Source: Acidobacteriota bacterium (GTDB lineage Bacteria > Acidobacteriota > UBA6911). Taken from it: DNA of 64,000 nucleotides. Positions 172-3,850 of this stretch are shown piece after piece. The stretch is taken from NCBI GenBank assembly GCA_963664705.1, contig OY761556.1, forward strand, positions 5,024,001 through 5,088,000, written 5' to 3'. Within the stretch, counting starts at the first letter, position 1, and every line of letters begins with the position of its first letter. Below the pieces are notes generated by a model, which was not told where the DNA came from, did not search any database, and saw only the letters and a list, made by a program, of their open reading frames with translations. A program made the position numbers and the translations under genes.

Positions 172-299
172 TATTGCAGGACTGAGAGACCGTGCCACAT
201 TCAAATCGACCGAAAGGCACTGTGAGATAGGGTTATAGGCTTAGAATGCAGTACTGAAGGCGGTAATTACCATTTTGGCGTTATCTCCCACAATGGGAC

Positions 300-312
300 A
301 TAACCGGCCAAT
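300..312. repeat. Left terminal inverted repeat of the recombinase element
   Basis: ATAACCGGCCAAT, exact reverse complement of 3730-3742. Confidence 0.8.
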
Positions 313-324
313 CTCTGCCCGTTT

Positions 325-1461
325 TTAGGCTCTGCGGAGTTTGCCCGCCTCTATGATTATTTTGGTAAGGCGATTGGAGAGCCGGTTGAGGCATTTGCGT
401 TCAGCACTAATCGGCAGCCCTCGCCGAAACATCTCCATTGCACGTTGAGTTGCGTGCAATGAATCGATTACCCCATCTAAACCAGTTCGAATCGGATCCG
501 ACGTTCTCGGCTGAGGGACTAAATGTCGAGGTTTTGAATGAGCCAGTTGAAACTCTCTCTGAAGATCCTTCAAGGCCACTTCGATATAGAGCATTGTCAT
601 ATTCGGAGAAGTGTGGCCGAGTAATTTCATCAGCACAGGAAAACTGACGCCGGAGCGAAGCATCTCCGTGGCATAGGTATGGCGAAACTGGTGTGGAACG
701 ATGCGAGTGGAGATTTCGAGAGAATAACAAACTTCATGCAGATAATCGCGAAGGCCACGAACGAGCGCGTACTTGGTGCTGGGCCGCGCCAGAAGTCGAC
801 CATCAGGAGGACACGGATCTAGGAAACGAAAGAATCGCAAGCGTTGGATAATCGCGACTATCGACGAATCCACCGGGACCATCCGTTCCGTTTTGAGTTT
901 GCCAAGTGGTACGTGAATGGCCCACTGGCGGAGACCAGTCGAGCGGAGGCAATCGACGGGCAAATCGGCGCACTCGCCAATACGCATGCCGGTATGGCGG
1001 AGGAGCAGAAAGACATTCGATCCTAGATCGTTGCGCTTGACGAACTCCTTCTGCAGAAGCTGATCCTGTTCGGCGGTGAGCGGACGTGCAAGTCTATGCG
1101 GGCGGCGCGGAATATCTTCACGACGAATCAGGTGGGCAACTTGAGGAAGCTGTTTGGTCCACGCCAGTTCTATGAACAGAGGGCGCAAAGCAATGAGCTT
1201 ACCAATATAGGTAGATGTGGCGAGCGGAGGCGTCTGGGCGCGCAAGTGGGACATCCAGCCGAGGAGGTGTGGCTCCCGCCGCAGTTGATCTAGGGCGTTT
1301 ACCTCCGGGTAGTTGGTGCCGAGATAACTAAGGAAGTTACGTACGGTCCCGCGATATTGGACATGGCTTGCAGAGCCGAGTGCAGTGCAGAGCGAATCGA
1401 CCGCGCGATCAAAGAGATCCACCAGTGGATGTGAGAGGGGAGGACGCCAGGAGCGTTTCAT
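325..1461 (-). CDS. Tyrosine-type recombinase/integrase with C-terminal extension
   Basis: Catalytic motifs HTGMRIGE, GKLKTER, HQFRH, LLGH, MTMLY. Confidence 0.93.
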   Translation of the reverse strand: MKRSWRPPLSHPLVDLFDRAVDSLCTALGSASHVQYRGTVRNFLSYLGTNYPEVNALDQLRREPHLLGWMSHLRAQTPPLATSTYIGKLIALRPLFIELAWTKQLPQVAHLIRREDIPRRPHRLARPLTAEQDQLLQKEFVKRNDLGSNVFLLLRHTGMRIGECADLPVDCLRSTGLRQWAIHVPLGKLKTERMVPVDSSIVAIIQRLRFFRFLDPCPPDGRLLARPSTKYALVRGLRDYLHEVCYSLEISTRIVPHQFRHTYATEMLRSGVSFPVLMKLLGHTSPNMTMLYIEVALKDLQREFQLAHSKPRHLVPQPRTSDPIRTGLDGVIDSLHATQRAMEMFRRGLPISAERKCLNRLSNRLTKIIIEAGKLRRA

Positions 1462-2504
1462 GAAGGAAGCCTCGGAAGGGGGCGGACTTGCAGCGCTACT
1501 GCGCGCGTATACTGCTGGTAAACGTCTTGTGGTGTGATCTGCACATAATGCAGGGTCGTCTGGATATCGGAATGCCCCATCAACTGCATAAGTGCCGGCA
1601 GGCTGATTCCGGCGCGTATCATATCGGAAGCGAATGTGTGCCGGAAGCGATGTGGGTGAGCAAGCGGAATGCCAGTGTGCTTGCGATGGTAACGGAACAA
1701 TGACCGCAGTCCGGCCAGAGTCATACGGAACCCGCGGGCCGGTCCCTTGAGCGAGACGAAAAGCGCAGCGGTGGCAACCTGGGGTCGTTCCCTCCGCCGA
1801 TAGTGGTCGAGGAGTTGCACTGTCTCCGGCGCCAGTGGCAGTAAGCGTATTTTGTTACCCTTGCCGCGTACGCGCAGCTGCGCTTCGGAGAGCAACAAGT
1901 CGTCCTCATTCAGCCCCAACACTTCGGCCGAGCGAAGCCCTTGAAGAAGCATTACTCCTACGAGAGCCAAATCGCGAGCCGTACGGAAACTGGACCAAAA
2001 ACGCGCCACCTCGTCCACCGAAAGCGGAACAAGTTGGCGTTTGGGCACTTTCACTCGCAGCCGGCTTATGGCTAGGCGCCGACGGCCTAGGCCCAGCGGT
2101 CCACGCCGCAAATAAACATGTTGGAAGCCCTGTGCCATGGACGATGGGGAGTCGGGGAACTGGTTGCGAAGAGCACGATCGGCAACGCCAACACGGTGAT
2201 TGATTGTGTAACTGGAAATCGGGGGTTGGTGGTTACACTGGAACTTCAGATAATCCTGGAGAGTCGATTCGGTCAGGTCGGCTGTGCAAACCTCAGCGGT
2301 GTGATGAAGACTCTCCCACCAGCGAACAAAATGTAGCAGGTAGTAAGCCCATGCTCGCAGAGTAGTATCCGCCAACCGACGGACATACTCGTGATCAAGG
2401 TAGCGATTGATCCAGCCAACCTCCTGACCGGTTTCTTGCTCGACCACACGAACCGGGCTTTGTGCTGTGTTGCGAATCTGCGGGCGAATCACACAAAATT
2501 TCAT
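1458..2504 (-). CDS. Tyrosine-type recombinase/integrase (XerD-like)
   Basis: QGLRSAE, RGKGNK, HRFRH, LMGH, TTLHY; start MKFCV at 2504 with GGAG upstream; ATGA overlap with the next recombinase. Confidence 0.93.
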   Translation of the reverse strand: MKFCVIRPQIRNTAQSPVRVVEQETGQEVGWINRYLDHEYVRRLADTTLRAWAYYLLHFVRWWESLHHTAEVCTADLTESTLQDYLKFQCNHQPPISSYTINHRVGVADRALRNQFPDSPSSMAQGFQHVYLRRGPLGLGRRRLAISRLRVKVPKRQLVPLSVDEVARFWSSFRTARDLALVGVMLLQGLRSAEVLGLNEDDLLLSEAQLRVRGKGNKIRLLPLAPETVQLLDHYRRRERPQVATAALFVSLKGPARGFRMTLAGLRSLFRYHRKHTGIPLAHPHRFRHTFASDMIRAGISLPALMQLMGHSDIQTTLHYVQITPQDVYQQYTRAVALQVRPLPRLPS

Positions 2505-2541
2505 AGCTGAGCCAAGCTCCAGAAAAGAATGTGTATCAGAG

Positions 2542-2859
2542 TCAGGCAGCAGGAAGTTCAAGTACCTGGTAGACTCCATCTTTGAATGCGATCAGATCTC
2601 GCGTCAGGAGTTCATCACGGGCGCCGGTAAGTTCGTGGCGGTGATGAATCTCGAGGAGTTCCGCCATACGTTCGTCGGAATAAAAACTCACACCATCCCG
2701 ATTAGCAACAGCGACCAAGATTAAGTAGAGAAGCTTTTCCAATCGGGTTAGTCCCTGATCGAAACCCTGCCGAAAAAAACGATGGTCAATCCAACTGAAA
2801 GAACCGCGGATGGTGCGGATTCGATCCGGCTGTAGTGGTTGAGGTCGTTTGTTCATCAT
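2542..2859 (-). CDS. Small winged-helix/HTH-like protein of the type found as an accessory gene in mobile elements
   Basis: FSWIDHRF...LLYLILVAVANRDGVSFYSD...ARDELLTRDLIAF..YQVLEL; resembles, from recall, ORFs next to IS21-family elements. Confidence 0.7.
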   Translation of the reverse strand: MMNKRPQPLQPDRIRTIRGSFSWIDHRFFRQGFDQGLTRLEKLLYLILVAVANRDGVSFYSDERMAELLEIHHRHELTGARDELLTRDLIAFKDGVYQVLELPAA

Positions 2860-2938
2860 GCTTTCCCCATTTTGTACATGCCGAAATTAACGAAGCTATA
2901 TGGAATGAATCAATATGTCGGGACTAAATCTAAAAAGC

Positions 2939-3441
2939 TCATGGGCGGCTGGGGCAACGATCCGACCAACGTCTCTCTCGTTCCAGAACTCGTTCGAGAG
3001 CGCGGCGACATGCATAGGAACAGAAGCGTTGCAGGGGCGACCGCCGGCTGCGGTGGAATTCTTGGTATCAACCAGGGCGATCGCAGGAACACGAAAATAA
3101 ATTTCTTATAATGACCCTCGCGTCGCCGGCCGGGCCCTTGTTTTGTTGCGTGCGCTCCTTTTGCCGCACTCTGTATCTGTGGCTTTGACGCGGCGAACCT
3201 GCTTTCCACCATCAGTTTTGCGGTACTTTTGCCGGGCTTTCCACTCTCTCCATTTTCCCGCCTCATTGCGGCAATGCTCGCTACAATAGCGTGCTCGGGG
3301 GTGTTCCGGCCGGAATATGCGACCGCAGCCTTTCAGCAAACACGCACGGGCGCGCGGCCATCTGGCTTTTCGCTTGGTATGGGGTCTTGTTCCTTTTGCT
3401 TGATTTTGAAGGAGAATTATCGGATGTTCACGAGGGCCCAT
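2939..3441 (-). pseudogene. Cys-rich (zinc-finger-like) accessory gene with a frameshift and an in-frame TGA
   Basis: CLLKGC..RYCSEHC in one frame; after a shift near 3190 it continues QSHRYRVRQ..FSCSCDRPG*YQEF..QRFCSYACRRALERVLERERRW to a stop at 2939-2941. Confidence 0.65.
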
Positions 3442-3729
3442 GGGAGTTGCCTCTCCCAGAAGCTCAAGCCTCGAGGGGGACCCATTCCCCTTCGGGGCGC
3501 ACTGAGCACAATTGGATGCAATATCCTTAACCCTGCTCTTAGATTAGGATCGGAATTAAAACTGGCGGGATTACTCGTAAATCAAATTCAATTTTCCGAG
3601 CAGTCATAGTCCTTTGGGGTTGTAATTGCGGAGCACCCGAAAAAAGGCGGAGAAGAATAAGGGAAAAGCTATTTATCTCACTTCATAATTTGAAGATTCA
3701 CGGAAATTCTTTATAGACCATTTTTGATT

Positions 3730-3742
3730 ATTGGCCGGTTAT
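3730..3742. repeat. Right terminal inverted repeat of the recombinase element
   Basis: ATTGGCCGGTTAT. Confidence 0.8.
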
Positions 3743-3850
3743 TTTGGACTTTTGGGGACTAATGGAAAATCGAGGAGAAACGTAATAGCATCCTATCAGC
3801 TACAGGATTGCATCAATTGTTGGGAGAACAGAGAATAATTACCAGAGCCT

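Follow-up and report, generated by a model that had tools for sequence, protein, structure and literature searches.

Tyrosine-recombinase transposons are listed in five groups in the accessible part of PMC10214605, which gives the route of Tn554 as unresolved and states that SE and Tn554 elements carry six bases from the donor to the new site. Bacterial selenoproteins, for their part, are listed in 119 families in a 2026 inventory (Table 1 in the accessible part of PMC13188914). Here we describe a 3.4-kb transposon bounded by positions 300 and 3742 of the window, i.e. the whole stretch of 64,000 nucleotides of Acidobacteriota DNA that was analysed (contig OY761556.1, positions 5,024,001 to 5,088,000). 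The element is present in four copies in the genome of its host, a soil or sediment bacterium. We read it, with a probability of about 0.55, as a compact, multi-copy and Tn554-related transposon that would move by exchanging one strand at a 3-bp core, and whose zinc-finger gene contains an in-frame TGA likely to encode selenocysteine. Ends, copies, target site, homology, asymmetric junctions and the conservation of the TGA were all observed directly. The most surprising part is this conserved, recoded TGA, which probably specifies selenocysteine.

The family, which is Tn554-related by protein comparison, is apparently undescribed. No description of it, or of selenocysteine in a mobile element, was found in the literature searched, which was mostly without subscription journals and did not cover the 2013 RIT paper, the primary Tn554 papers, ISfinder or supplements. 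The accessible part of PMC13326102 contained nothing relevant. None of the 119 selenoprotein families bears a mobile-element, insertion sequence (IS) or recombinase-associated name in Table 1 of PMC13188914, and the words transpos-, mobile and recombinase are absent from its accessible text.

Copies, genes and relatives of the transposon

The preliminary description of this DNA had proposed a transposon from a perfect 13-bp inverted repeat (IR) at 300-312 and 3730-3742 that encloses four co-oriented genes. Both the repeat and the genes, which lie on the minus strand, were confirmed at these coordinates. Because a perfect 13-mer IR also arises in 135 of 500 shuffles of the region, the IR by itself proves nothing. 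A search of the complete genome (one contig, 6.89 Mb) revealed three further copies bounded on both sides by this IR, the similarity stopping at the flanks. The case for the element therefore rests on copy number and not on the IR alone, and copies sharing their ends show that the transposon is real. The four copies occupy four different sites and form two subtypes that differ at about 230 columns; one pair is one base apart and the other pair is identical. The features of the locus are as follows.

265-292, plus strand: host DNA, long arm of the repeated target with one of its palindromic half-sites; the motif precedes all four copies
293-299, plus strand: target-derived 7-bp spacer, its last three bases being the shared core GAC; differs among the four copies
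300-312: terminal IR at the recombinase-B end; motif conserved across the family
325-1461, minus strand: recombinase B (PF00589); 29% over 312 columns, tree support 100, catalytic set invariant
1458-2504, minus strand: recombinase A, 348 aa (PF00589), homolog of the short actinobacterial Tn554-like recombinase; 37% over 345 columns, tree support 92
2542-2859, minus strand: winged-helix protein (wHTH), 105 aa; weak HTH_36 match, weak lead to replication-initiator domains
2939-3441, minus strand: two-finger Cys-rich gene, 167 codons with the TGA read through; the window sequence is one base short near 3187
3016-3060, minus strand: predicted hairpin 3' of the TGA, its loop some 25 nt away; candidate selenocysteine insertion sequence (SECIS), weak in this genome
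3068-3070, minus strand: conserved TGA, in frame, in the place of the second Cys in finger 2 (C-D-R-P-G-x-Y); likely a selenocysteine codon
3436-3500, minus strand: conserved structured leader of the zinc-finger gene, common to IS21-like elements; 20 pairs, 2 compensatory
3730-3742: terminal IR at the promoter end; same IR in all copies
3743-3749, plus strand: element-borne 7-bp spacer of four fixed bases and the GAC core; identical in all four copies
3750-3760, plus strand: short arm of the target palindrome, host DNA, from comparison of target motifs
4357-4402, plus strand: unoccupied paralogous copy of the target site, from the genome motif scan

Recombinase A (of the same length as its homologs) and recombinase B (378 aa) both belong to the tyrosine recombinases of PF00589 and score below the cut-off of every NCBIfam model matched. 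The catalytic residues are R191, K215, H285, R288, H311 and Y320 in A, and R160, K188, H257, R260, H283 and Y292 in B. This R-K-HxxR-H-Y set, already noticed in the window, was invariant in all aligned homologs (160-161 rows for A and 139-149 for B). Relatives of recombinase A accounted for 5191 of 8000 scored candidates. We analysed 159 related loci (79 genomic and 80 metagenomic), the best-ranked of 254 and 561 confirmed ones; as this sample was ranked on recombinase A, it may be biased. In all 153 loci with room, recombinase B comes directly after A, which upholds the proposal of a distinct two-recombinase family, and the search of relatives for the IR ends found their motif conserved. A third recombinase is not normally present, the elements containing A and B only with no room for another inside the IRs. 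The distance between the IRs is 3.3-4.0 kb in 72 elements.

The closest plasmid relatives are actinobacterial recombinase pairs, including that of pBD2, which the accessible part of PMC3414803 lists as Tn554-like. Recombinase A is 37% identical over 345 columns to the short partner of such a pair, and B is 29% identical over 312 columns to the long partner. In a quick tree of 43 rows, A joined the short partners (SH-aLRT 92, at a point where long branches meet) and B the long partners (100), apart from two recombinase trios. No recombinase of the family grouped with these trios (L039 and L064), which were taken as RIT stand-ins on the basis of layout. Judged by the identities and the tree, the family is distinct, as had been supposed, and closer to Tn554 than the first reading implied. 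In L064 (2741-8275), the trio interrupts a family recombinase-B gene as a separate insertion.

The preliminary description regarded the wHTH protein and the zinc finger as defining helpers in a conserved gene order, a view that failed in the larger sample. Upstream of A, a CHC2 + Toprim primase was found in 144 of 152 loci, wHTH in only six and neither in two; a zinc-ribbon open reading frame (ORF) precedes the primase in 103 of 106 cases. Since the primase and wHTH types interleave in the recombinase tree, the helper module was swapped more than once. In the proposed scheme the upstream module would be exchangeable, a primase in most relatives and zinc finger plus wHTH here, its probable role being in the replication step or in the control of expression.

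For the wHTH type, 891 relatives were found, the best 120 at a level of at least 77%. HTH_36 matched weakly in the wHTH protein and in 13 of 32 distant relatives scanned. The structural model shows a winged-helix layout (pLDDT 68), and Foldseek returned nothing at E<=0.001. The top weak structural matches were the Rep initiators 5kbj and 4pta (E 0.03 and 0.07); being below significance, they count against our reading, and the modelled link to initiators is a lead only. Sequence searches of PDB with the wHTH and zinc-finger proteins gave no significant match, and the atlas clusters for the helper proteins are unnamed, with HTH_36 in 12% of one cluster. In two congeneric or confamilial genomes, the wHTH family is encoded ahead of recombinase trios and follows unrelated Cys-rich ORFs (L215:3334-6979 and L217). 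Such gene orders suggest that RIT-like, Tn554-like and IS21-like elements have helper modules in common.

In the predicted fold of the leader at 3436-3500, both the ribosome-binding site and the start codon of the zinc-finger gene are paired. The leader accompanies this gene across element families (also in the IS21-like elements L187 and L188), has no Rfam entry and may serve the finger protein as a binding site. An Rfam scan of positions 1-4600 gave a single match at chance level. As for an outward promoter at the left end, no sigma-70 match was found in 3400-3900, and the motif is not conserved.

Junction rule and target site

All four copies share the 7-mer at 3743-3749, and the opposite 7-mer has three forms. 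Shared bases between the two flanks, reported previously as GGAC, do exist; the common part is GAC only, because two of the four copies have C before GAC. Both ends were readable in 74 distinct elements, own copies included, and in 72 after L026 and the second L054 row had been dropped for mis-paired ends. Spacer positions 1-7 (in gene orientation) agree between the ends in 71, 72, 70, 59, 24, 8 and 34 of these 72 elements, respectively. The first three bases are equal at both ends in 70 of 72 (mean 36.9 and maximum 48 in 5000 shuffles), a test that overstates independence as the elements are kin. Besides GAC, the core takes the forms GTC, GCC, ACG, GGC and GCG in different subfamilies.

The promoter-side (element-side) 7-mer is constant in eight of eight multi-copy genomes (33 copies), and the target-side 7-mer varies in six of them. 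Altogether, the set contains 19 element-side vs 42 target-side 7-mers. The 7-mer of 3743-3749 recurs in genome G018 and in five of six miniature derivatives, which are about 160-220 bp long, occur in four congeneric relatives (L210, L211, L212, L221, L222) and obey the same spacer rule. The constant promoter-side 7-mer, the varying 7-mer at the recombinase-B side and the miniatures together show that the element keeps its own spacer. The junction rule is therefore that the element retains its own spacer, that of the target being left at the recombinase-B end. The miniature, non-autonomous derivatives sit in variants of the same target site. A further non-coding miniature of 250 bp in the host genome (C1:2937480-2937729) has the family IRs but the ACG core of another subfamily.

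Movement of the Tn554/SE or Tn916 type, with the spacer carried over from the previous site, would agree with the homology to Tn554-like pairs and with the differing flanks of a single copy, from which Tn916-style coupling sequences had been considered. However, the constancy of the element-side 7-mer within every multi-copy genome, the smaller number of element-side than target-side forms and the mere 3 bp common to both ends have largely refuted this explanation, which we regard as highly improbable.

The asymmetric junctions point instead to exchange of one strand that is resolved by replication, a strand-specific mechanism which we infer from the junction rule. As a first step, the two ends would recombine to a circle whose junction consists of IR, the seven bases of 3743-3749 and IR. 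The recombinases would then pair this junction with the degenerate palindrome of the target, whose 7-bp spacer shares the three edge bases only. The strand cut next to the three core bases would be exchanged in both excision and integration, so that the promoter end would retain the own spacer and the recombinase-B end receive that of the target. The junction would finally be resolved by replication, as for phage VGJ at dif.

Alternatively, both recombinases may cut and both strands be exchanged in the manner of XerCD, the 4-bp mismatch always being repaired toward one strand. The two invariant active sites and the symmetrical, classical core formed by a 13-7-13 junction would suit this explanation. 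Yet repair would have to be strictly biased in about 72 elements from many hosts, and the reciprocal spacer arrangement is absent from all multi-copy genomes examined; we thus hold it to be possible but rather unlikely.

Besides the kinship of the elements, two observations weigh against exchange of a single strand. Both catalytic sets are invariant, which a single exchange would not need. Moreover, the 13-7-13 circle junction, which had been predicted earlier and stands as an intermediate of the pathway, was found neither in the contigs of six sequencing runs nor in the fraction of raw reads (about 4%) covered in a seventh, and the same holds for an empty allele. As contigs drop rare forms, the absent junctions are no evidence of inactivity. 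The orthologous locus offered no empty allele of the element in 50 family genomes, contrary to what had been anticipated. An 864-base skip in the contigs of two runs was set aside, since one side spans 22 bases and it is probably the flank of another copy matching two repeats. Because the family is small, abundant and equipped with a readable junction rule, it lends itself to testing directly whether a recombinase pair can transpose by strand-specific exchange completed by replication.

A repeated chromosomal target, as had been proposed, was evident from a motif that precedes all four copies. A weight matrix gave 38 hits in the genome, and 33 were kept by eye as target sites of about 45 bp. 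Four of the 33 hold a copy, each inserted at the same base and with the same orientation. For 31 of the 33, a neighbouring site lies within 10 kb (random mean 3.0, maximum 12). The sites are located between small accessory genes, with several clusters near tRNA genes. The site at 4363, previously used as the empty reference, is a free target-like site that matches the reconstruction at 30 of 40 bases, but it is paralogous and not the empty allele of this locus. In the congeneric genome G007 (L177), a free site agrees with the target of this copy in its 7-mer and neighbours. The target motif was found in seven of 29 congeners. Since the insertion in G018 lacks the long arm, this arm is not required. 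By eye, the target site resembles half of the host dif with another spacing; dif itself lies elsewhere.

A probable dif was located at C1:2036981-2037008, near the GC-skew maximum and about 2.5 kb from a XerC/D-like gene. The sites, which are direct repeats, cluster at C1:2909620-2936716, 5019466-5028368, 5612082-5626957, 5870033-5899771 and 6713636-6714114, where they separate segments of 0.3-9 kb with one or few accessory genes, like a cassette array without an integron integrase. A 308-bp segment is common to two clusters, and the similarity stops 31 bases into the site in both. An integron cassette array was rejected, no integrase passing the TIGR02249 cut-off (best 87.6 of 265 bits). At least 11 nearly identical copies of an IS110-family element were noted, at C1:2938670 and 10 further places, and one of them adjoins the first target cluster.

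The zinc-finger gene and its in-frame TGA

The Cys-rich gene of the preliminary description is present, but its 111-aa ORF is only a part of a gene of 167 codons with two Cys clusters, an in-frame TGA having been overlooked. Near 3187, the window also lacks a base found in the other three copies. As the covering contig in both runs of one sample carries this base at full depth, its absence probably reflects an error of assembly. TGA stands at codon 125 in each of the four copies, in six of six homologous loci and in G436, and the TGA was found in nine distinct DNA sequences. Among 120 protein homologs, 66 have Cys at this column, two end there and 52 lack an intact finger-2 motif, most of them through translation in a shifted frame. 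In 41 homologs (42 before P0161 was dropped as mis-parsed), the shifted translation reveals the codon, which is TGA in 39 and Cys in two; TGG, TAA or TAG was implied in none. Annotation thus hides the zinc-finger gene, most homologs that miss finger 2 being frame-shifted translations. One extra base in a T run just upstream in five of six loci suggests slippage. A full-length two-finger protein would need recoding of the UGA and, in most relatives, slippage at the T run in addition.

In the 35 codons past the TGA, the eight carriers have 7, 4 and 20 variable columns at the first, second and third codon positions, with 229 synonymous vs 93 non-synonymous pairwise differences; this pattern indicates that the frame beyond the TGA is under purifying selection. 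The Cys columns are invariant in the 41-row alignment, and the FCSxxC motif and W residues are kept after the TGA. A true stop, with finger 2 lost in the clade and the downstream conservation caused otherwise, would be consistent with the two database proteins annotated as ending at this position, and the shifted default product of relatives is without finger 2 as well. Against it stand the wobble-biased variation, the conserved residues beyond the TGA and the lack of any in-frame ATG, GTG or TTG start past it in the window copy. In addition, a stop interrupts the antisense frame with the shared wobble position in seven of eight carriers, and hence conservation due to an antisense gene is closed as an explanation. 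A true stop is accordingly improbable, and we are highly confident that the TGA is read through.

Selenocysteine is the decoding that we favour, by a narrower measure. The UGA aligns with Cys in homologs and coding conservation is seen on both sides of it, the features expected of a selenoprotein gene. The hairpin 3' of the TGA has a GGUC loop, and its third positions are G in 40, 41 and 41 of 41 homologs, while four-fold sites upstream vary. The host possesses selB, selD and tRNA-Sec, namely two selB genes, two tRNA-Sec with G73, and TGA-bearing selD and fdhA genes with GGU-loop hairpins; selB was also found in G018, G432 and G436.

Several results weigh against selenocysteine. Hairpins were scored as SECIS with a loop 16-37 nt past the UGA (the bacterial consensus spacing in the accessible part of PMC13188914), G in loop position 1-2 and a stem of at least four. 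Four of eight carriers pass the stem rule and this genome's own copies fail it, with a background of 122 (loose) or 11 (strict) hits among 1261 true TGA stops. No compensatory change was seen in any of the 15 predicted pairs. The loop lies 25 nt from the TGA vs 17-20 nt in the host selD, fdhA and UGSC-like genes. Finally, selB occurs in 49 of 51 family genomes and in both hosts tested that have the Cys form, and its co-occurrence is thus not discriminating.

These doubts leave some room for readthrough of another kind, a leaky or hairpin-stimulated stop decoded as Trp, as Cys or by a suppressor tRNA, so that the two-finger protein stays scarce. The unusual loop spacing, the hairpin that is weak here and shows no covariation, and the slippage that the gene already seems to use in five of six homologs would suit such decoding. 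Nonsense-suppressor tRNAs have been proposed in Acidobacteria and opal Cys tRNAs in deltaproteobacteria, according to the accessible part of PMC5389517. On the other hand, the codon is TGA or Cys and never an implied TGG, TAA or TAG in the 41 homologs, the TGA replaces an invariant Cys, both tRNA-Sec candidates have G73 and not the U73 of Cys-type tRNAs, and 25 nt falls within the consensus spacing. Hence we consider readthrough without selenocysteine a tentative second choice. Both tRNA candidates having G73, a Cys-inserting selC* tRNA was rejected, and a 72-nt TCA tRNA call was set aside for its mismatched stems.

The two selB genes, the two selD genes (one with TGA and one without) and the two tRNA-Sec genes lie at C1:3072623-3078309, 3657373-3659256, 6559014-6559112 and 2046792. 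At least seven UGSC-like TGA genes were recognised by eye, and a 90-nt tRNA-like gene with an 8-base acceptor stem was found at C1:2597966. The Cys form of the zinc finger occurs in the IS21-like elements L187 and L188 with the same leader and a frameshift at the same place, a Cys codon and no matching hairpin. The genes downstream there presumably encode a ParB-like protein and an IstA-like transposase, as judged by inspection. The zinc-finger model (pLDDT 78.5) matches only weak treble-clef structures (YacG, E 1.1), and a plasmid search gave no match to the zinc finger.

If the TGA encodes selenocysteine, this protein would be the first one named from a mobile element in the inventory of 119 families, with selenocysteine at a probable zinc-ligand position. 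It would suggest that the transposon reads the selenium supply of its host, the full-length helper being tied to selenium. We give an even chance to the broader picture of a widespread acidobacterial transposon clade with its own zinc-finger selenoprotein regulator, the complete form of which would call for selenocysteine and usually for a programmed frameshift as well, and in which host selenium or redox state would gate a one-strand-moving element with swappable replication helpers.

Comparison with known systems

Like RIT elements, the transposon is about 3.5 kb long, multi-copy, with overlapping recombinase genes and terminal IRs, and its wHTH family precedes trios in two genomes. It differs in having two recombinases and not three, and an IR of 13 bp vs 34 bp (accessible part of PMC10214605). 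In the quick tree, A and B stand apart from the RitA/B/C stand-ins L039 and L064, trios assigned by layout that took the place of reference RIT proteins.

SE/GInt elements resemble it in having four coding sequences, two active tyrosine recombinases and a strict strand bias at the junctions. However, the SE pattern comprises IntA, Tfp, a large IntB and Srap, and a 6-bp footprint passes from one site to the next, whereas here the element spacer is fixed; SEs are set apart here by their published features. The GmtY and GmtZ models, which we take to represent the SE integrases, gave weak generic hits only, far below the cut-off. Unlike Tn916-type elements, the transposon has no variable, carried coupling sequences, and its IRs enclose only four genes, where the Tn916 type would have conjugation genes.

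With selenoprotein genes the zinc-finger gene shares an in-frame UGA at a conserved Cys, a downstream hairpin and a selenocysteine-using host. The motif C-D-R-P-G-U-Y is unlisted, and the nearest listed family is the FmdB zinc ribbon (UxxU), a predicted zinc-ribbon precedent in the accessible part of PMC13188914.

The Vibrio phages VGJ and CTX at dif offer a likeness in mechanism: one strand exchange pair is set by short edge homology and replication resolves the product, with the excision of VGJ following the same course (accessible part of PMC4246890). These phages use the host XerCD at a single dif, whereas the element has its own recombinases and dispersed sites.

The closest likeness is to Tn554. 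Both have two adjacent, co-oriented and catalytically intact recombinases and target-site specificity, and among the systems tested A and B are nearest to the short and long partners (37% and 29%; support 92 and 100), in a comparison that covers the actinobacterial modules L195-L197 only. In contrast, the second recombinase has 378 aa vs 611-828 aa (accessible part of PMC3414803). There is no TnpC, which some Tn554-family members lack as well, recombinase B ends 12 bases from the IR, and the wHTH protein is without DUF6262, which the third gene of L195 has. The element further differs in its perfect 13-bp IRs, in a fixed spacer that is not carried over, and in helper genes (zinc finger and wHTH, or zinc ribbon and primase) placed upstream. 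By its sequence, then, the element is to be regarded as a relative of Tn554 that departs from three features of the Tn554 family.

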